A DNA stretch of 64,000 nucleotides from Candidatus Cloacimonadales bacterium (GTDB lineage Bacteria > Cloacimonadota > Cloacimonadia > Cloacimonadales > DAONDQ01). The notes beneath the pieces were generated by a model. That model was not told where the DNA came from. It ran no database searches and worked only from the letters and a program-made list of their open reading frames with translations. Made by a program: the position numbers and the translations under genes. Location: contig OY759316.1 in the NCBI GenBank assembly GCA_963662275.1, positions 608,001 through 672,000 on the forward strand, written 5' to 3'. Below, piece after piece: positions 28,458-56,718 of this stretch (positions within the stretch are counted from its first letter, which is position 1; every line of letters begins with the position of its first letter).

Positions 28458-28585
28458 GACCTTGCTGGATGCCAAATTCCGATTTGCAAATCTGACAGAC
28501 TTTGAGGAGATGGGGCATCCTGTGGAAAATCGGAACTCTCCACCCCCTGTCATTGTCGATAGTGAAAACCTGCTTTCAGTTAGGT

Positions 28586-28728
28586 TCAAAGCAGAATTAT
28601 ATTTTCCAGCTTATATTTATTATGAAATCTCTTCAAATCAGTGTTAGTCCATCTTGCAAATGCTTTCCAAATATTCTTCTGAAACTCACGGATGTCCTTT
28701 CCGACAGGTATGGAGATAATGCTGCATT
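28586..28728 (-). pseudogene. 3' remnant of a diverged mcrC allele
   Basis: Translates *CSIISIPVGKDIREFQKNIWKAFARW...; 24 of 26 codons encode the same residue as the intact mcrC C-terminus. Confidence 0.85.
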
Positions 28729-28791
28729 ATTTTTTAATCCTTGAAGGGATAAACATTATAGTTATTGCAATTACGCGTAACGCCTGACTTT

Positions 28792-29002
28792 CGGAACGCC
28801 TCACCCCGTGAGGTGGCAAAACGCACCCCGTGCGTTTCCAGTATTCAGTTTATCTCACAAGCAATTTATTCGCTTTCAATATATAATGTCAAATAGTTTT
28901 TCAGCTCATAAAGTCTTCATTTCTTTTATCATAAGCAGTTGTATACCCCAGTCTCGCAGCGCACGGGGTGCGCTGTGCCACCTCACGGGGTGAGGCGTTC
29001 CG
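28792..29002. repeat. REPIN/MITE-like long hairpin element, copy 1
   Basis: ~46-bp GC-rich inverted arms (CGGAACGCCTCACCCCGTGAGG...CCTCACGGGGTGAGGCGTTCCG) around an AT-rich core; three nt differences from copy 2. Confidence 0.9.
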
Positions 29003-30251
29003 GAACAATCCATCCTGCAAACGCATCCCATATATTCTTCTGAAACTCCCGGATATCCTTTCCAACAGGTATGGAAATTATGCTGCATTCTTTGTCAGAG
29101 GGATGATTCTCTCCAGGTTTATAATAATTACCTTTTCTTGGTGGATGTTCCCCCGGATATACCAAAGCCACTTTATCTGCCTGGCAATATTCATGATAAG
29201 CATACATCTGCCTCAAATCATCAGGAGATGGATTCCCTGTACCCAGGTTCTTCCATTTCGTATCCCAAACGAGTTTTTTGTTATCATTTTCAATGATGAT
29301 ATCTGGCTGAATACGAGACTTGTAACCATTCTCAGGTTTCCAGAAGTCCACTGGAATCTGTGCCTTGATATGATATCCTGCATAATTCTTCCTGATACTT
29401 TGTCTCAAACTGACATAAACAAATTGTTCCCACAGGGCATTCATATCGAACATCAACGCCAGGACATGATTTCTACCCGTGGAAATATCGGGGTGATATT
29501 GGAGCAAAATCAATCTTGCAATCTCTATAGCTTTTCTGTAGGGTTCAGTTTTTCGATTGTATGTGATGCTATCGAAGATAACTTCTGATACATTTATGTC
29601 GGGCATTTCAGGGAAATTCAATAACAAAGCCCCAATTCTGCTTTGAAGAATAGTACTTGTATTGATGTGTTTCAGCAAACGGATTGTCTTGTAGAGTATG
29701 AAATGCAATTTATGCTCAGCATCGAATGTCGAGTAGCTGATGTAGAACCGTTCCCGGTGAACGATGTTTTTCTGGATATGTTTACCGAATTTGATACAGC
29801 CTTTTAATGCAGTTGCATTGCCTTCAATTTTATGATACTTTTTAACCAGCCCTTTATGCAATAAGGATTCAACTTCTGCCAAGAATAACTCAAAGTACAG
29901 ATCGAGTATGGAATTTGATTTTAGCTGTAACGCACTGCTGCTGGGTGCTTTTACTTCGAATAAGCCAACCGTTTTCAACATCCCAATCAGCATGTTCCGC
30001 CAAGTTTCTTTCTCTTCCGCTTTTGTGCTTTTGTCTGATTTGGGTAATACTTCAATGACCGTATTTCCCACTTGTATCACACCCACGTATTCACAAAAAC
30101 GAATGCCGTTATGTATTAATGTGAAATACGGGACACCCTTCTCACCATAAACAGTTTGAAATGCCCTTAATTGCTCAAGAGAAAGATGTTGATTATCTGT
30201 TCCTAAATGAATACACTCATGTTCAAAAACAGCATAGGGAGACTTCAACAT
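28983..30251 (-). CDS. mcrC: McrC-family restriction nuclease subunit
   Basis: YVGVIQ...IEVLPK, FDMNALWEQFV, IQPDI, WDTKWK, DLRQMYAY; directly downstream of mcrB. Confidence 0.92.
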   Translation of the reverse strand: MLKSPYAVFEHECIHLGTDNQHLSLEQLRAFQTVYGEKGVPYFTLIHNGIRFCEYVGVIQVGNTVIEVLPKSDKSTKAEEKETWRNMLIGMLKTVGLFEVKAPSSSALQLKSNSILDLYFELFLAEVESLLHKGLVKKYHKIEGNATALKGCIKFGKHIQKNIVHRERFYISYSTFDAEHKLHFILYKTIRLLKHINTSTILQSRIGALLLNFPEMPDINVSEVIFDSITYNRKTEPYRKAIEIARLILLQYHPDISTGRNHVLALMFDMNALWEQFVYVSLRQSIRKNYAGYHIKAQIPVDFWKPENGYKSRIQPDIIIENDNKKLVWDTKWKNLGTGNPSPDDLRQMYAYHEYCQADKVALVYPGEHPPRKGNYYKPGENHPSDKECSIISIPVGKDIREFQKNIWDAFAGWIVPERLTP

Positions 30252-30254
30252 CTA

Positions 30255-32105
30255 TCATTTACTCTTAAGAAGTGTCTGGATTGCACCTATGAAATCATCA
30301 TCACTCATCTGTGCAACATCTTGAAGCCGATAGATATGACGACTGTTCAAATCATCCACTCGATAATCATTAAAGTCTTCTAAGATATACTCTTCCGTAC
30401 TATCTTGTTTTCCACCATTCAAGAAAAACCCTTCCCGTAAAACCAGCCCTATCTTCCCATAATCTCCATAGAAATACTCCTGGAGTAGAGGTATGATCTT
30501 ATTATGAAATACATTCTTCAAACCTGACACGTCTTTAATAGACATCAAATAGCTATGCCCGATCATGTGATCTTTATCCACCAGCTTTTCAATGCGTTTA
30601 TTAATCTTCTGAAGCAAGTAATTCAGAGATACACCTGCAATTTCCTTATCCAGTTGAGGTAAATCATACAAAGGCTTCATTTCTTCAAAACAGAACCTTC
30701 TTCGCAAAGCAGTATCCAGAGCTTCAATGCTTCGGTCTGCTGTGTTCATTGTCCCGATGATATAAAGATTTGTCGGTACGCTGAACTTATCATGGCTATA
30801 AGGTAATGTTACTTCTAATGCTTCAGGTTTCCCTTGTCGTTTATCTTCTTCAATCAAGGTAATCAATTCCCCGAATATCTGGGATATATTGCCTCGATTG
30901 ATTTCATCGATGATGAGAACGAAATTAGTATTAGGTTCTGTGGATTCATTTAAATGATGCTTAAGCTTCAAATACTCTATTACACTATACAAGTAACTCT
31001 CCTGGAAAAACTTATGATTACCACTCAGTTGGCTGATCAGTTTTTCTTTTGTTAGAGAACCAGTTAGTTTTGAATCAAGATAGATATTGAGATTATCATG
31101 TCCATTAAGTGATATCTCAAAACTTCTACCTGTTTTTGTTTGTAACTGAATGGTTTCTTTTGCTTGCACAGAGATTTCTCTTATCAAACTCTGATATGCT
31201 TCTTCAAAGTTATTTTGTTTTGGAATATTAGCATTATCACAAATCCTTCTAAAGATTCCTGGTACGACATCATATTTTACATATCCATCATCTTCTGCTG
31301 GTGGTAATGGCTTCAAACCTTCAATAAAATCCTCATAACACATACTTTGATGGAAAGTAGTAAATACAATACGCCCTTTATTGGCATTCTCATCAAAGAG
31401 GGTTTTGATATCCTTACGGGGTTTGTTGCGTATATCTATATTCAGGATTTCGAGAGCTTTATTCACAGTGTTGTATGTCTTTCCAGTACCGGGAGGTCCA
31501 TAGAGTATTTGATTCAATGGAATATCAATTCTTGATTCAAGCATAGTTACCTCCACTTTTTGTACATTTGTCTCTACTTTATTTGGTTCTAATATTACCT
31601 TAAACACATTTTCAAAGTCAGACCACATTTCAATTAGTGCGTTTTTAAGATAAGCTTTTTCTCTATCTGGATCATTTATCAAATCATCCCATGTGACACT
31701 TTTACTTGGAGATAAAAATGCATCCCAATGCATAAAACGCTCATCAACCCTTTGATATTTATTACTGAAATTATCTGCAATATATTCTCGAATATCATTT
31801 TGTATCTCAAGCAACTTATCATTAAGTATTGATTTTTTATTTTGCCTAATTTTGCCATAATGTATATAATACCTGACTTCAACATCTCTATGTTTACCTA
31901 CATGAATTCTCAGAGTTGCATGTGCATTATTAAAATTTGTTTGAAATGATCTCAAATACTTTGAATAACATACAAACCATTTATCTGGACTGGATTGATA
32001 TAATGGTGATACATCCTTCCCTTCGTTTTGCAATTCAATAGCAATCTCTTGCATTAACGTTAGCACTTGATCGATTTTCGTTTTTTCTACAGTATCATCC
32101 ATCAT
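30255..32105 (-). CDS. mcrB: McrB-family AAA+ GTPase with unrecognised N-terminal domain
   Basis: NQILYGPPGTGKT, TFHQS--YEDFIEG, IIDEINRGN, GTMNTADRS (McrB signature), ALRRRF. Confidence 0.93.
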   Translation of the reverse strand: MMDDTVEKTKIDQVLTLMQEIAIELQNEGKDVSPLYQSSPDKWFVCYSKYLRSFQTNFNNAHATLRIHVGKHRDVEVRYYIHYGKIRQNKKSILNDKLLEIQNDIREYIADNFSNKYQRVDERFMHWDAFLSPSKSVTWDDLINDPDREKAYLKNALIEMWSDFENVFKVILEPNKVETNVQKVEVTMLESRIDIPLNQILYGPPGTGKTYNTVNKALEILNIDIRNKPRKDIKTLFDENANKGRIVFTTFHQSMCYEDFIEGLKPLPPAEDDGYVKYDVVPGIFRRICDNANIPKQNNFEEAYQSLIREISVQAKETIQLQTKTGRSFEISLNGHDNLNIYLDSKLTGSLTKEKLISQLSGNHKFFQESYLYSVIEYLKLKHHLNESTEPNTNFVLIIDEINRGNISQIFGELITLIEEDKRQGKPEALEVTLPYSHDKFSVPTNLYIIGTMNTADRSIEALDTALRRRFCFEEMKPLYDLPQLDKEIAGVSLNYLLQKINKRIEKLVDKDHMIGHSYLMSIKDVSGLKNVFHNKIIPLLQEYFYGDYGKIGLVLREGFFLNGGKQDSTEEYILEDFNDYRVDDLNSRHIYRLQDVAQMSDDDFIGAIQTLLKSK

Positions 32106-32171
32106 AATCTAATTCCTAATATTATAAATAATTAACATTCATCATTTATTAATCAACCAAAACTTCCACAC

Positions 32172-32382
32172 CGGAACGCCTGACCCCGTCAGGTGGCAAA
32201 ACGCACCCCGTGCGTTTCCAGTATTCAGTTTATCTCACAAGCAATTTATTCGCTTTCAATATATAATGTCAAATAGTTTTTCAGCTCATAAAGTCTTCAT
32301 TTCTTTTATCATAAGCAGTTGTATACCCCAGTCTCGTAGCGCACGGGGTGCGCTGTGCCACCTCACGGGGTGAGGCGTTCCG
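32172..32382. repeat. REPIN/MITE-like long hairpin element, copy 2
   Basis: Direct repeat of 28792-29002 with a compensatory change CCTCAC/GTGAGG to CCTGAC/GTCAGG. Confidence 0.9.
32243..32272 (-). promoter_or_regulatory. Sigma70-like promoter inside hairpin element copy 2, facing mcrB (equivalents at 28863-28892 and 33127-33156)
   Basis: Minus strand TTGACA-18nt-TAAATT, conserved in all three copies. Confidence 0.6.
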
Positions 32383-33004
32383 AATTTCTCAGCCAAGACC
32401 ATCTCCACATTTCCGGTGTTTCAACCAATCCTGCTTTGACGGGATTCATCATGATGTAATTTATTATATTCATCATCTCCTGCTCATTCCGTACGCAATA
32501 ATCAAAATACTCCCTTTGCCAAAACCTTCCACTTTTCTCCAAATGAATATTGATCTCTTTCGCTGTTCTCATTTTCAGCAAATGCATGATGTCAGAAAGT
32601 GTGTGTTGCATGTGATTCTCATCCTGTAGCGGTTGAAACAGAACATGTACATGATTTGGCATAATAGTATAGCAGATCAATTGAATGTAATCATTATTCA
32701 TGATTTTCAACTGGTTGTTAATAATTTCAGCAATTGGATTTTCTGATAGATTAGTTGTAGTGGTTATGCTCTTTGCCAGGAGTTCATCATAAAATCCAAA
32801 CACTTTCTTTTGAATTACGTTCTTGAAATTAGAACCTTGCGTTATTGTCCTATCCAATTCAATTTGATATGAATTTAATTGATCTATGAAAGATTTAGGA
32901 AGTGAGTTTGCGATACGAAATGTAACAAATAAATATCCATCTTCCGGTTGCATATGTGGAAGTCGTCGCCAATAGAACGAATGATCAATTTCCTTTTCCA
33001 ACAT
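32363..33004 (-). CDS. REP-associated tyrosine transposase (RAYT; Y1 HUH, IS200 TnpA-like)
   Basis: RRLPH...YLFVTFR, YTIMPNHVHVL (HUH), FWQREYFD, YI--NPVKAGLV...W-WS; flanked by hairpin elements. Confidence 0.92.
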   Translation of the reverse strand: MLEKEIDHSFYWRRLPHMQPEDGYLFVTFRIANSLPKSFIDQLNSYQIELDRTITQGSNFKNVIQKKVFGFYDELLAKSITTTTNLSENPIAEIINNQLKIMNNDYIQLICYTIMPNHVHVLFQPLQDENHMQHTLSDIMHLLKMRTAKEINIHLEKSGRFWQREYFDYCVRNEQEMMNIINYIMMNPVKAGLVETPEMWRWSWLRNSERLTP

Positions 33005-33055
33005 AAATCCCCCCTTTGTAACCCGGAACGTCTGACATTCGGAACGCTTGACTTT

Positions 33056-33267
33056 CGGAGCGCCTCACCCCGTGAGGTGGCATAACGCACCCCGTGCGTT
33101 TCCAATCTTCAGTTTATATCACATGCAATTTATTCGCTTTCAATATGTAATGTCAAATAGTTTTTCCTTAAATAACAGTCATTCCTTCTTATCTTACAAA
33201 CATTGGCACTCAACAGTCTCTCAGCGCACGGGGTGCGCTGTGCCACCTCACGGGGTGAGGCGTTCCG
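33056..33267. repeat. REPIN/MITE-like long hairpin element, copy 3 (diverged core)
   Basis: Same arms as copies 1 and 2; the core has diverged except around the promoter; preceded by CGGAACGYYTGACWTT stutters at 33024-33055. Confidence 0.88.
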
Positions 33268-33590
33268 AATCCCTCAGCTACTTATGTTGGGGGAATTGTG
33301 GTTTCTTCTTTCTTATTATCCATAATAATATTTTTGGTTTTGATGAGTATTATGTCAATGCTTAATTTGAGATGTATCGTTGTAACATTGAGTGGCACTC
33401 TGTTGTATGAGTGGATTGGTAATCCCCGAAATCAAGCAGAATTCGACAATGCCATTATCGAAAACAACAAATTATCAATTTATGTTACAGCAATTTGATT
33501 GTATCATATTATCTCCTGAATTTTGTAACTTTAGGAGTCTGCTCAGAGTCATTGTGATGCAATCCCAACTACTTTGCCAAAAGACTATAC

Positions 33591-35868: not shown

Positions 35869-36306
35869 ATGGAACAGGATGTATTTATCAGGATTATGAA
35901 ATCAAAATATGAAATGAAAATCTTTGTAGCAGGTGAATTAATCAATACTTTCCAGGTAGGAATCGGAGAGAATATCGGTGATAAGGAAATTGCCGGTGAT
36001 AAACGCACACCGGAAGGTCTTTTCAAAGTTGTCAGTATCGAAGATTCATCGAGTTGGACACATGATTTCGCAGATGGGAAAGGAACGATCAAAAATGCCT
36101 ATGGACCATGGTTCATTCGTTTGAGTACATCGGCATTGGAGACTATTTCAGGCAAGACTTGGATAGGGATTGGGATTCATGGAACACATGATCCGAATAG
36201 CATTGGCACTCTTTGCACAGAGGGATGCATTCGCTTGAATAACGCTGATTTATTGAAACTGGTACAGGTCGTTGGTGTAGGTTCGAAAGTGGAGATATAT
36301 TATTAA
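35869..36306 (+). CDS. L,D-transpeptidase (YkuD family)
   Basis: GD-RTPEG-F, YGPWFIRL, IGIHGT, TEGCIRL-N. Start moved to ATG 35869 behind GGGAGA. Confidence 0.9.
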   Translation: MEQDVFIRIMKSKYEMKIFVAGELINTFQVGIGENIGDKEIAGDKRTPEGLFKVVSIEDSSSWTHDFADGKGTIKNAYGPWFIRLSTSALETISGKTWIGIGIHGTHDPNSIGTLCTEGCIRLNNADLLKLVQVVGVGSKVEIYY

Positions 36307-36342
36307 AGAAGAGGAGGATAGTGTGCTGCTCTGTGTATAGAT

Positions 36343-37598
36343 AGATATTCAGTAGGATCGGAATCCTACTCCACGTTTTAGTCAGAAATTCAGTAGGATT
36401 GGAATCCTACTCCACGTTTTAGTCAGATATCCAGTAGGATTGGAATCCTACTCCACGTTTGGACAGATATTCAGTAGGATTGGAATCCTACTCCACGTTT
36501 TAGTCAGATATCCAGTAGGATTGGAATCCTACTCCACGTTTGGACAGATATTCAGTAGGATTGGAATCCTACTCCACGTTTTAGTCAGATATCCAGTAGG
36601 ATTGGAATCCTACTCCACGTTTGGACAGATATTCAGTAGGATTGGAATCCTACTCCACGTTTGGACAGATATTCAGTAGGATCGGAATCCTACTCCACGT
36701 TTTAGTCAGATATCCAGTAGGATCGGAATCCTACTCCACCCTTTGTTTTAGTCAGATATCCAGTAGGATTGGAATCCTACTCCACGTTTTAGTCAGATAT
36801 TCAGTAGGATTGGAATCCTACTCCACGTTTAGTCAAATATTCAGTAGGATCGGAATCCTACTCCACGTTTGGACAGATATTCAGTAGGATTGGAATCCTA
36901 CTCCACGTTTTAGTCAGATATCCAGTAGGATTGGAATCCTACTCCACGTTTGGACAGATATTCAGTAGGATTGGAATCCTACTCCATGTTTTAGTCAGAT
37001 ATCCAGTAGGATTGGAATCCTACTCCACGTTTAGATAGATATTCAGTAGGATCGGAATCCTACTCCACGTTTTAGTCAGATATCCAGTAGGATTGGAATC
37101 CTACTCCACGTTTGGACAGATATTCAGTAGGATTGGAATCCTACTCCACGTTTTAGTCAGATATCCAGTAGGATCGGAATCCTACTCCACCCTTTGTTTT
37201 AGTCAGATATCCAGTAGGATCGGAATCCTACTCCACGTTTGGACAGATATTCAGTAGGATTGGAATCCTACTCCATGTTTTAGTCAGATATCCAGTAGGA
37301 TTGGAATCCTACTCCACGTTTAGATAGATATTCAGTAGGATCGGAATCCTACTCCACGTTTTAGTCAGATATCCAGTAGGATCGGAATCCTACTCCACGT
37401 TTTAGTCAGATATCCAGTAGGATTGGAATCCTACTCCACGTTTGGACAGATATTCAGTAGGATTGGAATCCTACTCCACGTTTTAGTCAGATATTCAGTA
37501 GGATTGGAATCTTACTCCACGTTTTAGTCAGATATCCAGTAGGATTGGAATCCTACTTTTTAGTCAGATATCCAGTAGGATCGGAATCCTACTCCACG
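36343..37598. repeat. Tandem array of 31 palindromic 40/41-bp units
   Basis: Core CAGTAGGAT(T/C)GGAATCCTACTCCACG (8-bp stem, 4-nt loop) with linkers TTTTAGTCAGATATC or TTTGGACAGATATT; no unique spacers. Confidence 0.95.
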
Positions 37599-37605
37599 TG
37601 CTAGG

Positions 37606-39351
37606 TTATTTTGCTTTCTTCTCGATTTTAGCCCACGTATCTTTTAAGGTAACGATTCGATTATAAATTGCTTTTCCAGGCGTTGAATCCTTATCTTTGA
37701 TAAAATAACCTTGTCTCATGAATTGAAATCTTTCCCCTATCTCGGCAGTACCAATACATGGTTCAGCAAGAGCTGTATCGATCGTCACAAGAGAATCAGG
37801 ATTGAGATAGTCTTTGTGTGTTTTACCTGGTGGTGTTTCCATGGGATTGGGTATTGTAAACAACTGATCATATTGCCTTAATTGCACAGGAACGGCATCA
37901 TATGCAGAAACCCAATGCAATGTTCCTCTCACTTTTCTTTCATCAGGGGTATAACCACCACGCGATTCGGGATCATATGTACAATGTAGTTCAGTGATTA
38001 TTCCGGTATCTGCATCTTTGATCACTTTCACACAAGTGATGTAATATGTATGTTTCAGGCGCACTTCTGCACCTGGAGCAAGACGAAACCATTTATGAGG
38101 TGCATCTTCCTTGAAATCATCCCTTTCAATATATATGTTCTTAGAGAATTTGATCTTTCTTTTACCTGCATTTAAATCTTCAGCATTATTATCTGCTTCA
38201 AATTCTTCCACCAAATCCTCAGGATAATTATCAATCACAACTTTCAGCGGATCAATGACTACCATTGCTCTGTTGGCATGAAGATTGAGATCTTCACGTA
38301 CACAGAATTGCAGTAATTCGTAATCGACAATACTGCTGGCTTTCGCTACCCCGATACGTTCACAAAGATCACGTATGGATTCAGGTGTAAAACCACGGCG
38401 ACGTAATCCAGCAATAGTCGGCATACGTGGATCATCCCAGCCATTCACAATTCCGCTTTCCACAAGCTCACGCAGGATACGCTTGCTCATGACAGTATAA
38501 GTCAGGTTTAATCGTGCAAATTCAATTTGTCGCGGATGGCATGGTACAAGCAATTGATCCAGGAACCAATCATAAAGAGGTCTGTGATCTTCAAACTCTA
38601 AAGTACAAATAGAATGTGTAATTCCTTCGATAGCATCAGAAATACAATGTGTATAATCATACATTGGATAGATCAGCCAGTCATTTCCGGTTCGATGATG
38701 ATGTGCTCTTTTAATGCGATAGATCACAGGATCACGCATATTCACATTGGGAGAAGACATATCTATCTTTGCACGTAGCGATTTTGTACCTTCCTCAAAT
38801 TCTCCGGCTCTCATTCTCCTGAACAAATCTAAGTTCTCTTCGATGGAACGCTCTCGACAGGGGCTATTTGTACCTGGAACAGTCAGAGTGCCACGATATG
38901 TACGCATTTCTTCCTGGTTCAGATCACATACGAATGCTTTTCCATCTTTGATTAGCATTTCAGCATATGCATATAGTTGTTCATAGTAATCAGAAGCATA
39001 AAAGAGTTTGTCTTTCCAGTCAAACCCTAGCCAGCGAACATCATCCATAATAGAATCAACATATTCCACATCTTCAGCACTGGGATTAGTATCATCAAAA
39101 CGTAAATGACAAATACCCAGATAATCCCTGGCTAATCCAAAGTTCAGACAAATCGATTTGGCATGACCAATATGCAGATAACCATTAGGTTCTGGAGGAA
39201 AACGAGTCACAATACTTTTGTGTTTTCCTGACTTCAAATCTTCATCGATAATGAAACGAATAAAATTGGAAACAGGATCTTTTTCTTTCCCATCCAATTC
39301 CGCATTGGTGATTTCATTCTTTATTAGTTCAGTCATTTTTATATCCTTCAA
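37606..39351 (-). CDS. glnS: Glutamine--tRNA ligase
   Basis: [48 protein letters not shown]. Confidence 0.96.
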
Positions 39352-49240: not shown

Positions 49241-51133
49241 GGAGATGTCCCGAAACTAAATGATAGAAAAATAGCAACTATTAAATATTAATCATATTAC
49301 TTGACATATTGTTATAGGGTGTATTGTTGCCTTTAAAAACTAAGCATAGAGAGAATTATGAATTTCAGAGAGCACAATCCGAATCAGGGGACACTCTATG
49401 GACTTAATATTGAAGAGAGAATACCTCCCCAGCACATGGTTCGTTATGTTAACGATGTCGTTGAGCAACTGGACTTATCTGAGCTATACACAAGATACTC
49501 TGATGAAGGTACACCTGCTTATCATCCCAAGATGATGTTGAAGATCATTGTGTATGCCTATATCAATGGTATTTATACCTGTCGGAAGATAGCTAAGGCT
49601 GTTCGGGAGAACATCAATTTTATCTGGCTGGCAGGAGAACAGGAACCTGATTTCAGAACGATCAACACCTTTGCCTGGACTAAGTGTTCTGATATTCTTA
49701 TTGATGTATTTTATCAGGTAGTACTGAAAGCATCATCATTAGGATATCTTGATCTCGACACCTGTTTTGTTGACGGGACGACGATTCACGCAAATGCCGG
49801 CAAGAATTCCTACATCTGGAAAAGCAATGCGCTTCGTTATCAGGAACTGGTCAAGACACGAGTTGAGGGATTGTTTAAAAAGATCGAGGAATATAATCAG
49901 GAAGAGCAACAGCAATATGGAACCGCTGATCTTCTTGAGCTTGGTGAGCAATTGCATGCGGTTGAATCAGAGAAAACTGCTACAGTCGCATCTGAACAGA
50001 TCAGAGATAGACTGGTCTCAGCAGAAAACAAGCTGAAAGAAGCAATGTCCCGACTACAGAAAAATCATCCGTCAGATACTCGGGCTATCAAGAAAATCAA
50101 ATCTCTTTTGCGCGAAATCTCCAAATCAAAGAGCAATGATATAACTAAGCTGGAGAAATATGAGCAACAGCTTGAGATAATTGGAGAAGGACGCAGCAGC
50201 ACATCCAAGACTGATAATGATGCCACATTTATGCGATTGAAAAATGGACAGCTGGCACCGGGTTATGTTGCCAGTATCGGAACTTCAGAGCAATTTGTCA
50301 CAGGCATTCACTTATTCAATATCCCTAAAGAAACCGTTGAATTTCCCAATCTCATGGAGCAAATGCATGATGAATTGGGACAATATCCTACCGACGTTGT
50401 TGGAGATGCTGCCTATGGCACTGCGCTGAATTTGAATTATGCTGCTGAAAAAGAGATAACAAGCTATCTCAAGACCCAGGATTATAAGAGAGATTATCGG
50501 GACTCTCTTCTGACAGGCTTTAGCTATGATGAGGAGCATGATGAGTGGGTCTGTCAATTTAATCGGAGACTGGTCAAAATCAAGGAAGAAGAGACAGAGA
50601 AGAACGGTCCGAAACGAATCGTGAAAACCTATATATGTAATGACTGCAGAGAATGTCCTCACAATAAAAAGTGTATTCCCTACAAGGATAAAACACATAA
50701 ATCACTGACCTACGATCCTCATATAGCTCCACTAAAACGTCAGACAGTCAATAATCTGCTTTCTGAAAAAGGCGACAAGCTGAGAAAGCAAAGAGGCATC
50801 GAACCGGAGGCTGTATTTGCTTTCATGAAGTGGAACAGGAAGTTTGAGAGATTTACTGTCCGTTCATTGAGAAAATGCAAGGAACAGTTATCCCTCCTCT
50901 TTTTAGGACATAATATAGGGAAAATGTTTCTGCACTTACAAAATACTGAAGGAAAAGCCTGATGAAGACTCTTCCTACCAGAATTCAAACATGAATTAGG
51001 TAAATATTACTCCGTTTTTCCTTGTCTTTGCATCGCTTTTCGGAAACTATTGAGTAATTTAGTTTGCCTGTAAAAACAATCACATATTTTACAACAGAAG
51101 AAAATAAAATCATGCTAGTTTCGGGACATCTCC
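49241..51133 (+). mobile_element. IS1182-family element, copy A
   Basis: Perfect 18-bp IR GGAGATGTCCCGAAACTA; 1893 bp, same length as copy B. Confidence 0.92.
49358..50962 (+). CDS. IS1182-family transposase
   Basis: G-PAYHPKMMLK, PDFRTI, FVDGTTIHANA, SKTDNDATFMR, GDAAYG, Cys-rich insertion, R-IEPEAVF. Confidence 0.93.
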   Translation: MNFREHNPNQGTLYGLNIEERIPPQHMVRYVNDVVEQLDLSELYTRYSDEGTPAYHPKMMLKIIVYAYINGIYTCRKIAKAVRENINFIWLAGEQEPDFRTINTFAWTKCSDILIDVFYQVVLKASSLGYLDLDTCFVDGTTIHANAGKNSYIWKSNALRYQELVKTRVEGLFKKIEEYNQEEQQQYGTADLLELGEQLHAVESEKTATVASEQIRDRLVSAENKLKEAMSRLQKNHPSDTRAIKKIKSLLREISKSKSNDITKLEKYEQQLEIIGEGRSSTSKTDNDATFMRLKNGQLAPGYVASIGTSEQFVTGIHLFNIPKETVEFPNLMEQMHDELGQYPTDVVGDAAYGTALNLNYAAEKEITSYLKTQDYKRDYRDSLLTGFSYDEEHDEWVCQFNRRLVKIKEEETEKNGPKRIVKTYICNDCRECPHNKKCIPYKDKTHKSLTYDPHIAPLKRQTVNNLLSEKGDKLRKQRGIEPEAVFAFMKWNRKFERFTVRSLRKCKEQLSLLFLGHNIGKMFLHLQNTEGKA

Positions 51134-54825: not shown

Positions 54826-56718
54826 GGAGATGTCCCGAAACTAGCATGATTTTATTTTCTTCTGTTGTAAAATATGTGATTGTTTTTACAGGCAAACTAA
54901 ATTACTCAATAGTTTCCGAAAAGCGATGCAAAGACAAGGAAAAACGGAGTAATATTTACCTAATTCATGTTTGAATTCTGGTAGGAAGAGTCTTCATCAG
55001 GCTTTTCCTTCAGTATTTTGTAAGTGCAGAAACATTTTCCCTATATTATGTCCTAAAAAGAGGAGGGATAACTGTTCCTTGCATTTTCTCAATGAACGGA
55101 CAGTAAATCTCTCAAACTTCCTGTTCCACTTCATGAAAGCAAATACAGCCTCCGGTTCGATGCCTCTTTGCTTTCTCAGCTTGTCGCCTTTTTCAGAAAG
55201 CAGATTATTGACTGTCTGACGTTTTAGTGGAGCTATATGAGGATCGTAGGTCAGTGATTTATGAGTTTTATCCTTGTAGGGAATACACTTTTTATTGTGA
55301 GGACATTCTCTGCAGTCATTACATATATAGGTTTTCACGATTCGTTTCGGACCGTTCTTCTCTGTCTCTTCTTCCTTGATTTTGACCAGTCTCCGATTAA
55401 ATTGACAGACCCACTCATCATGCTCCTCATCATAGCTGAAGCCTGTCAGAAGAGAGTCCCGATAATCTCTCTTATAATCCTGGGTCTTGAGATAGCTTGT
55501 TATCTCTTTTTCAGCAGCATAATTCAAATTCAGCGCAGTGCCATAGGCAGCATCTCCAACAACGTCGGTAGGATATTGTCCCAATTCATCATGCATTTGC
55601 TCCATGAGATTGGGAAATTCAACGGTTTCTTTAGGGATATTGAATAAGTGAATGCCTGTGACAAATTGCTCTGAAGTTCCGATACTGGCAACATAACCCG
55701 GTGCCAGCTGTCCATTTTTCAATCGCATAAATGTGGCATCATTATCAGTCTTGGATGTGCTGCTGCGTCCTTCTCCAATTATCTCAAGCTGTTGCTCATA
55801 TTTCTCCAGCTTAGTTATATCATTGCTCTTTGATTTGGAGATTTCGCGCAAAAGAGATTTGATTTTCTTGATAGCCCGAGTATCTGACGGATGATTTTTC
55901 TGTAGTCGGGACATTGCTTCTTTCAGCTTGTTTTCTGCTGAGACCAGTCTATCTCTGATCTGTTCAGATGCGACTGTAGCAGTTTTCTCTGATTCAACCG
56001 CATGCAATTGCTCACCAAGCTCAAGAAGATCAGCGGTTCCATATTGCTGTTGCTCTTCCTGATTATATTCCTCGATCTTTTTAAACAATCCCTCAACTCG
56101 TGTCTTGACCAGTTCCTGATAACGAAGCGCATTGCTTTTCCAGATGTAGGAATTCTTGCCGGCATTTGCGTGAATCGTCGTCCCGTCAACAAAACAGGTG
56201 TCGAGATCAAGATATCCTAATGATGATGCTTTCAGTACTACCTGATAAAATACATCAATAAGAATATCAGAACACTTAGTCCAGGCAAAGGTGTTGATCG
56301 TTCTGAAATCAGGTTCCTGTTCTCCTGCCAGCCAGATAAAATTGATGTTCTCCCGAACAGCCTTAGCTATCTTCCGACAGGTATAAATACCATTGATATA
56401 GGCATACACAATGATCTTCAACATCATCTTGGGATGATAAGCAGGTGTACCTTCATCAGAGTATCTTGTGTATAGCTCAGATAAGTCCAGTTGCTCAACG
56501 ACATCGTTAACATAACGAACCATGTGCTGGGGAGGTATTCTCTCTTCAATATTAAGTCCATAGAGTGTCCCCTGATTCGGATTGTGCTCTCTGAAATTCA
56601 TAATTCTCTCTATGCTTAGTTTTTAAAGGCAACAATACACCCTATAACAATATGTCAAGTAATATGATTAATATTTAATAGTTGCTATTTTTCTATCATT
56701 TAGTTTCGGGACATCTCC
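54826..56718 (-). mobile_element. IS1182-family element, copy B (opposite orientation to copy A)
   Basis: Same 18-bp IRs; at least two synonymous differences from copy A. Confidence 0.92.
54997..56601 (-). CDS. IS1182-family transposase
   Basis: Protein identical to 49358-50962. Confidence 0.93.
   Translation of the reverse strand: MNFREHNPNQGTLYGLNIEERIPPQHMVRYVNDVVEQLDLSELYTRYSDEGTPAYHPKMMLKIIVYAYINGIYTCRKIAKAVRENINFIWLAGEQEPDFRTINTFAWTKCSDILIDVFYQVVLKASSLGYLDLDTCFVDGTTIHANAGKNSYIWKSNALRYQELVKTRVEGLFKKIEEYNQEEQQQYGTADLLELGEQLHAVESEKTATVASEQIRDRLVSAENKLKEAMSRLQKNHPSDTRAIKKIKSLLREISKSKSNDITKLEKYEQQLEIIGEGRSSTSKTDNDATFMRLKNGQLAPGYVASIGTSEQFVTGIHLFNIPKETVEFPNLMEQMHDELGQYPTDVVGDAAYGTALNLNYAAEKEITSYLKTQDYKRDYRDSLLTGFSYDEEHDEWVCQFNRRLVKIKEEETEKNGPKRIVKTYICNDCRECPHNKKCIPYKDKTHKSLTYDPHIAPLKRQTVNNLLSEKGDKLRKQRGIEPEAVFAFMKWNRKFERFTVRSLRKCKEQLSLLFLGHNIGKMFLHLQNTEGKA

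Follow-up and report, generated by a model that had tools for sequence, protein, structure and literature searches.

The McrBC restriction genes of a Candidatus Cloacimonadales bacterium stand next to the gene of a repetitive extragenic palindromic (REP) element-associated tyrosine transposase (RAYT), and mcrC and the RAYT gene both end inside copies of one palindromic repeat. They lie in a 64,000-nucleotide stretch of DNA, called the window below (assembly GCA_963662275.1, contig OY759316.1, positions 608,001 to 672,000 of the forward strand), within a complete 4.38-Mb genome, G000; the same-genus genome compared with it is G001. What is directly established is the repeat family, its place at the ends of restriction-modification (R-M) genes, flanking sequence split between two of its copies, and pieces of gene ends beside its inverted doublets. 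We lean, with modest confidence, towards the reading that the RAYT would have copied REP doublets onto the ends of restriction genes together with pieces of gene ends, and that mcrBC then entered by a crossover that duplicated a doublet.

Layout of the locus

Positions are those of the window unless marked as G000 or G001, and the locus corresponds to G000 637-641 kb. On the minus strand the order begins with h3 (33056..33267), an older doublet copy that is 86% identical to h1 overall and 78% in the spacer. It is followed by the RAYT (TnpA-REP) gene (32363..33004, 213 aa), whose stop codon lies in arm A of h2; by h2 itself (32172..32382), 208/211 identical to h1; by mcrB (30255..32105, 616 aa, an AAA+ GTPase by PF07728 and NF008457, GC 0.34); and by mcrC (28983..30251, 422 aa, PF10117, E 1.9e-58), which takes its last five residues and its stop from arm A of h1. 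Then come h1 (28792..29002), a REPIN-type doublet with arm B at 28792-28834, arm A at 28960-29002 and an AT-rich spacer of 125 nt, and finally an 85-nt copy of the mcrC 3' end (28648..28732). A sequence-only reading of the window had described this order, and every part was found at its place; its description of h1 and h2 as 211-bp direct repeats differing at three nucleotides was likewise confirmed (positions 11, 19 and 166), the identity ending exactly at the outer arm ends.

A genome-wide repeat family and its RAYT

The same reading saw the hairpins as the spacers of a local array. h1 does fold strongly (z = -10.05 against shuffles, 0/200 as good). The 43-nt two-stem arm from which the hairpins are built is a genome-wide repeat: G000 has 40 copies at no more than four mismatches, 26 of them single and the others paired in seven inverted doublets. 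The spacers of six doublets are related to one another (z 3.0-29), whereas that of the remaining doublet is not (z -0.1 to 2.7). Both small stems of the arm covary: in an alignment of 22 arms, 96.9% of cells are paired, with 19 cells changed on both sides, against 20-50% in slid controls, and 0/500 shuffles reach as high, a count that is not a probability because the sequences are related. The C-G to G-C exchange at positions 11 and 19, reported earlier as a compensatory pair between h1 and h2, does pair within a small stem and keeps it, but it is a standing variant of the REP, found in 9/40 arms, and it adds two mismatches to the long 211-nt stem of h2. It is therefore in the small stems, and not in the long hairpin, that the conserved structure lies.

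The conserved foot of the arm is GGAA, and the 5' GT(A/G)G of canonical REPs was not found; atypical repeats have been described for RAYT subclass 2.6 (PMC6006769). The arm is present in G001, and a DNA search of 39 genomes from outside the genus gave no match, nor did viral contigs match. Wider sampling of 15 genome and 19 metagenome loci added little, 16 of the 19 being near-exact duplicates of loci already in the set. No Rfam family matched the doublets at its gathering score, and the idea of a structured RNA was rejected. Judged by its sequence, each hairpin is a REPIN, an inverted pair of REPs, flanking its RAYT gene.

The RAYT itself matches NF047646 (REP-associated tyrosine transposase) at 89.8 bits, above the cut-off of 80, has E. 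coli TnpA-REP (4ER8, E 8.4e-5) as its sole PDB match, and keeps its catalytic motifs in translation (HUH at H118-V119-H120 and Y183-x3-NP). It scores below the cut-off of NF033573, and the near-identical copies of a transposase unit that mark IS200/IS605 were not found, the closest RAYT paralog in the genome being 50% identical. G000 has 14 RAYT genes, 11 of this type and three of a second type, and repeats occur in the flanks of each of the 11 paralogs examined; the hairpins and the RAYT of the window are thus one REP-RAYT pair among many, and the assignment of the REP arm to the adjoining RAYT is supported by the sequences.

Stop codons inside the arms

The TGA that ends both the RAYT gene and mcrC lies 20 nt inside the arm, one frame of which always gives the ending ERLTP. 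Five open reading frames (ORFs) end in this way: two belong to type IIG R-M genes, one to a broken IIG gene, and the other two are those of the RAYT and of mcrC. A third IIG gene (G000 486856-489963; L032:8857-11964, handles of this form denoting loci) carries, by a true change or an assembly error, an additional base immediately ahead of the arm that its paralog lacks, and so crosses the arm in a different frame. Each of the six genes ending within an arm of this family is either an R-M gene or the RAYT. ERLTP replaces a variable tail, for relatives of McrC stop a few residues past the last conserved Trp, and close IIG relatives end 3-5 codons later. Two further RAYTs, and at L107, L108, L109 and L110 ruvB, a radA-like gene, a MerR gene and an ABC ATPase gene, take their stops from other repeat families, and for GTAG REPs the ends of the repeat often provide stop codons (Di Nocera 2013, PMC3733652). 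The shared ERLTP ends of RAYT and McrC that had been pointed out are real; REPs that contain the stop of a gene are general, both in this genome and in the literature.

Association with restriction-modification genes

The six doublets with related spacers lie at four places in G000, each of which has an R-M gene that ends in arm A; for this we roughly estimate a chance of 3e-5 (three independent events at 3% each, the 3% being assumed). Eighteen arms lie no more than 100 bp behind a co-oriented gene of at least 140 aa. Five of them overlap the gene; among the 13 that do not, 11 follow ordinary genes and two follow genes with a ResIII domain. These two are paralogs with a single arm 28 and 95 bp past the stop (L093 and L103; G000 929084 and 4013991). 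Seen from the R-M side the link of doublets to R-M genes is weak: a doublet accompanies 3/11 N6-methyltransferase matches in G000, and 4/22 R-M positions picked by family have an arm within 6 kb, where about two are expected (33 sites x 12 kb / 4.38 Mb). The sequence-only reading had named copies scattered at ordinary intergenic sites, with no variable cargo between pairs, as evidence against itself, and in part this applies, since most copies do lie at such sites. A tie of the repeats to R-M gene ends in this genome is supported.

The near-chance count of arms around R-M positions also suits an account that we hold to be unlikely, in which the repeats are incidental decoration: mcrBC would have been resident, doublets would have inserted independently on both sides and been made alike by gene conversion, and the R-M link would be the trace of a time when the RAYT resided in a defence island. 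REPs arise by preference close to their own rayt gene (PMC2817692), the RAYT and an IIG gene share one island in G001, and the divergence of the mcrC fragment (13%) and of the h3 spacer (22%) could date from one old episode. By itself, however, this account does not say why doublets should sit at R-M ends at three loci far apart, and it has further difficulty with the flanks of h1 and h2 described below.

Gene-end pieces also lie beside doublets in the type IIG genes. Another family has, in three genomes, four copies of the gene at G000 1961362, with 85-89% DNA identity along 3.2 kb; the match to them breaks off 8 bp short of the arm, and they have neither an arm nor, in 14 kb, a RAYT. In the 13 nt that directly precede its arm, the 1961362 gene is identical to the distant paralog at 486856 and not to its close relatives, and the body of that paralog nearby matches at only 98/155 nt (the 13-nt identity was read directly; the last 20 columns of a MAFFT alignment gave 12/19, lowered by gap placement). 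Since these 13 nt are common to the paralogs and not to the close relatives, a doublet with a short gene-end piece has likely passed from one IIG paralog to the other. Joint movement of gene and arm within the genus is favoured by the 486856 gene and its 80% identical ortholog in G001: each has an arm at its end, but the junctions and the loci differ, and G001 carries another gene at the G000 site.

Two observations concern the surroundings of these genes. The 1961362 gene and its upstream region (L034:7185-10458, G000 1961-1964 kb) match G197, G116 and G101, as in a recent transfer across Cloacimonadota families. Behind an IIG doublet at L033:14058-15366 (G000 1840057-1841365) stand three small genes, the middle one with an HTH_3 domain, that by eye resemble a toxin-antitoxin-chaperone set and also occur in G001.

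A general association of RAYTs with R-M genes was considered and rejected. At 18/19 other loci of this RAYT's clade, none of 40 R-M query proteins found a match within up to 7 kb (the 19 loci span 5.7-14.6 kb, some being truncated at contig ends), so that only one has an R-M gene; R-M neighbours occur at 2/14 RAYT loci in G000; and no RAYT was found within about 1.5 kb of other mcrC loci (n=14) or other IIG loci (n=29).

A second, unrelated RAYT of 174 aa, with GTAG-type repeats, repeats the layout (L112:2820-7800; G000 4352820-4357800). There the order is doublet, a gene of 242 aa, doublet, type IIG R-M gene, repeat cluster, RAYT and doublet; the stops of the IIG gene and the RAYT both lie within repeats, and a doublet of the same family precedes an IIG-like gene at G000 2069090. 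Across the phylum 3/29 loci of the second RAYT type match the R-M set within +/-1.5 kb, and two more look R-M-like by eye. In other Cloacimonadota, RAYTs of this type lie inside or beside type I R-M operons (L138 and L161; L134 and L153 by eye), and the hsdM and hsdR genes of L161 are 91% and 81% identical to those of a G000 system.

The layout of the window also recalls integrons, which consist of IntI, attI, attC and Pc, with a folded repeat after each gene, the stop in the site and unrelated genes in one direction. The likeness is one of layout only: here no integrase is nearby, copies of the repeat occur across the genome and contain, in the window, a promoter-like motif, and no growth of an array is shown. 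The 15 PF00589 matches are nearest at G000 462 kb and 828 kb; 26/40 arms are singles, and the 11/13 trailing arms after ordinary genes are likewise not confined to cassette ends; and the four IIG copies in three genomes that have no arm show no gene-plus-site unit moving between genomes. That the doublets are attC sites of an integron whose integrase was lost is accordingly very improbable. Co-oriented repeats after genes, with stops inside the repeat, are what an attC-like layout would give, but the arms belong to a 40-copy family that flanks the RAYT in two genomes, none of the tyrosine-recombinase matches lies within 170 kb of the locus, and the doublets match no Rfam family at its gathering score.

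Split flanks and the history of the locus

The doublets of the window share their flanks in an uneven way. The B-side flank of h3 consists of two tandem partial arm copies (33024..33055, plus strand), and that of h1 of a partial arm repeat (28779..28791, plus strand) common to h3 only. The A-side flank of h3 is 11 nt long (33268..33278, minus strand) and matches the RAYT 3' end at 32383-32393 at nine positions. Nowhere else in the genome is either flank found: A is confined to h2 and h3, B to h1 and h3. The A-side flank of h3 is likely a captured RAYT gene end. Since h3 has both flanks, h2 only A and h1 only B, the simplest history is likely that one ancestral doublet with both flanks stood behind the RAYT gene until mcrBC split it and the 211 bp were duplicated. 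One crossover with a circle would suffice for this product, whether made by RecA or by the RAYT. Two separate insertions with gene conversion also fit the split flanks but need more steps, and the decoration account in particular requires a separate, exact loss of the A flank by h1 and of the B flank by h2 at the arm ends.

The best relatives of McrC are 61% identical and, where named, come from Bacteroidota, and mcrBC was therefore likely acquired by this genome. No Pfam family matches the first ~190 residues of McrB, at its N-terminus, which may form a DNA-binding domain not described before.

Beyond h1 the sequence-only reading saw the stub of an old mcrC. A fragment is present, but it has just 85 nt (87% identity to intact mcrC) and is bounded not by a natural tail but by a dispersed repeat outside the REP family (28546..28645, no strand assigned; 75% over 100 bp to G000 3179776-3179874), whose left part has about 20 more matches in the genome. 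Two extensions were tried and dropped: a natural old mcrC tail after the fragment, because the sequence there matches that repeat, and a continuation of the fragment to h1, because 88% of shuffles score as well. The homology ends 6 nt before the point at which h1 starts in the intact gene; within 26 codons there are seven synonymous and three non-synonymous changes, with GAA to TAA just upstream. The fragment could have been captured as a gene end or could be what is left of an older allele, the synonymous bias leaning towards the latter.

Putative promoters in the spacers

The hairpin spacers had also been said to carry a promoter, a claim that comes down to a match to consensus. TTGACA-18-TAAATT (predicted; 10/12 consensus matches; 28863..28892 on the minus strand in h1, 32243-32272 in h2 and 33127-33156 in h3) stands in each of the three spacers of the window, directed towards the next gene; promoter-like sites in the region number 18 against 18.4 expected in shuffles, and the three homologous doublets elsewhere lack the motif. 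Upstream of G000 genes TTGAC[AT] is enriched (653 sense vs 283 antisense), which makes promoter activity of the spacer motif plausible.

Relatives and a search for excised forms

The RAYT ortholog in G001 (65% identical) lies in another repeat-studded defence island, with different genes and the same arm on both sides. The island (L027:8273-15338, C8) reads arm, split IIG gene ending in an arm, GmrSD, ORF, arm, RAYT and three tandem arms, the last in units of about 117 bp that repeat the RAYT's final codons and stop. No close inverted doublet was found among the 20 G001 arms examined.

A sign of excision was sought in contigs of public runs X1-X3, X4 and X5 being too fragmented. A contig of X2 covers exactly mcrBC (28973-32199) at a depth of 27.5, against 33.3-34.3 in its seven neighbours; no such dip occurs in X3, from the same sample (43.8 vs 43.2-44.5), or in X1 (16.7 vs 15-16). 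As contig depth gives no share of cells, the dip was not used as evidence. Neither the excised circle nor the empty site that the sequence-only reading had proposed looking for was seen in the public-run contigs, among which no joint across h1/h2 is listed.

Other features of the window

Between the YkuD gene and glnS, at 36296-37645, is a long array of alternating 40/41-bp units, likely another REP family. Two identical 1893-bp elements lie inverted 3.7 kb apart (49241-51133 and 54826-56718); their 534-aa ORF has about 20 copies in the genome, and they are likely an insertion sequence.

A possible mechanism

The reading towards which we lean, of copied doublets and a later crossover, could work in three steps. 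Like E. coli TnpA-REP, the RAYT would cut single-stranded DNA 5' of arm A, at a distance that varies, and such variable cutting would let copies carry upstream DNA of 11 nt (the RAYT end at h3), at least 13 nt (the two IIG genes) and perhaps 85 nt (the mcrC fragment). A copy landing just before a stop codon would survive when the ERLTP frame closes the protein within its variable tail. Doublets that have come to flank a module would then allow homologous recombination across the 211 bp to delete, duplicate or re-insert the module, and, as ordinary recombination would suffice, they would act as passive exchange sites with no need of a dedicated cassette integrase. The REPIN-RAYT pair of the window likely drags gene ends along and seeds recombination sites.

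Several points weigh against this reading. The enzyme of the mcrBC event cannot be read from the sequence, and a duplication ending at both arm ends fits the RAYT equally well; the formation of the first mcrBC-doublet unit is left unaccounted for; and it accounts only in part for doublets being found at R-M genes rather than at other dispensable ones. The genomes compared include no strain with an empty site, G001 being rearranged here and, with this query, giving no mcrC match. The synonymous bias in the mcrC fragment (7/11) has P = 0.012 if both copies were neutral and 0.08 if one was functional.

The sequence-only reading had gone further and proposed an integron-like system in which RAYT sites would delimit, express and exchange gene cassettes. 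Part of this stands, in that the repeats are the RAYT's own, lie at R-M ends, have split flanks and recur in the G001 defence island; against it are the copies at ordinary intergenic sites, the generality of stops in REPs, the IIG copies with no doublet, and the dissimilarities to integrons set out above. In its explicit form, which we think doubtful, the RAYT would excise single-stranded circles of a gene and a doublet and rejoin them at another doublet as at attC, the spacer promoter expressing the next gene. The split flanks and the duplication ending exactly at the arm ends would follow from it, as would the restriction of arm-ended genes to R-M genes and the RAYT, the arm-ended orthologous IIG genes at different loci in G000 and G001 with another gene at the G000 site in G001, the fenced layout around the second RAYT type, and the different cargo (IIG, GmrSD) of the G001 RAYT island; TnpA-REP circles are, moreover, a published model (PMC3333891). 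Against it, the IIG gene occurs in other genomes with no doublet, the G001 arms examined include no close inverted doublet, 18/19 related RAYT loci have no R-M match and the mcrC and IIG loci elsewhere have no RAYT near them, the promoter motif is missing from three homologous doublets, and only two genes or operons stand between doublets here, one of them the RAYT itself.

A kindred and equally speculative idea, to which we give little credence, is that RAYTs use doublets as single-strand recombination sites, capturing the upstream gene into another doublet, so that doublets would be integrase-free loading docks for restriction systems. It draws on the two unrelated RAYT families of this genome that fence R-M genes with doublets of their own, and on the window's record of one insertion with exact duplication of the site. 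If it were true, the benefit of RAYTs to the host would be turnover of anti-phage genes, and exchange carried out by the RAYT would amount to a gene-capture route based on an HUH enzyme. On the conservative reading, REPINs rewrite the C-termini of proteins and create sites of deletion and exchange around defence genes. Why bacteria keep RAYTs is an open question, for which the locus offers a concrete and testable case of a REPIN line tied to restriction genes.

Comparison with known systems

The locus is a variant of the known REPIN-RAYT system, partly resembling a cassette array in its layout and probably in one past insertion. A search of the literature, with most subscription papers outside its reach, gave no title on REP doublets fencing R-M genes; among works on RAYT subclasses and REP recognition (PMC6006769, PMC5581495, PMC8266576), the word restriction is absent from the first and appears only in a reference of the second, supplements aside.

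Like the E. coli REPtron with its mosaic elements of the interspersed bacterial kind (bacterial interspersed mosaic elements, BIMEs) and the REPIN-RAYT systems of Pseudomonas, the locus has an HUH Y1 enzyme whose gene stands between copies of its own palindromic repeat, and it has inverted doublets, single repeats across the genome at gene 3' ends, and tandem amplification beside the gene. Unlike them, it has a two-stem arm with CAC-CCC-GTG tips and a GGAA rather than a GTAG foot, only 40 copies, doublets of 211-269 bp that sit on R-M gene ends, and a RAYT whose ortholog is not at a fixed locus within the genus. The E. coli enzyme cleaves at a distance from the REP, and circles and the capture of flanking DNA or genes have been proposed for it, with cases in which a gene between BIMEs was precisely lost or replaced by hicAB (Ton-Hoang 2012, PMC3333891).

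In rayt-adjacent BIMEs, rayt 3' ends are captured and new REPs arise near rayt (Nunvar 2010, PMC2817692), and capture of gene ends and of genes by RAYT/BIME systems has already been proposed (PMC2817692, PMC3333891). The present units likewise carry a gene 3' end, in the 11-nt flank of h3 and the three tandem units of G001, but here genes other than rayt, namely mcrC and type IIG genes, bear the same signature. As with GTAG REPs (PMC3733652), the repeat provides the stop of the upstream gene; here, in contrast, a TGA 20 nt inside the arm adds ERLTP, and in this family such endings are confined to R-M genes and the RAYT. A last parallel is the TnpA-REP gene tied to prochlorosin/lanthipeptide genes, for which a diversifying mechanism has been proposed with causality unresolved (bioRxiv 10.1101/2020.03.09.984088); there, as here, a RAYT-type gene is associated with a variable class of genes.

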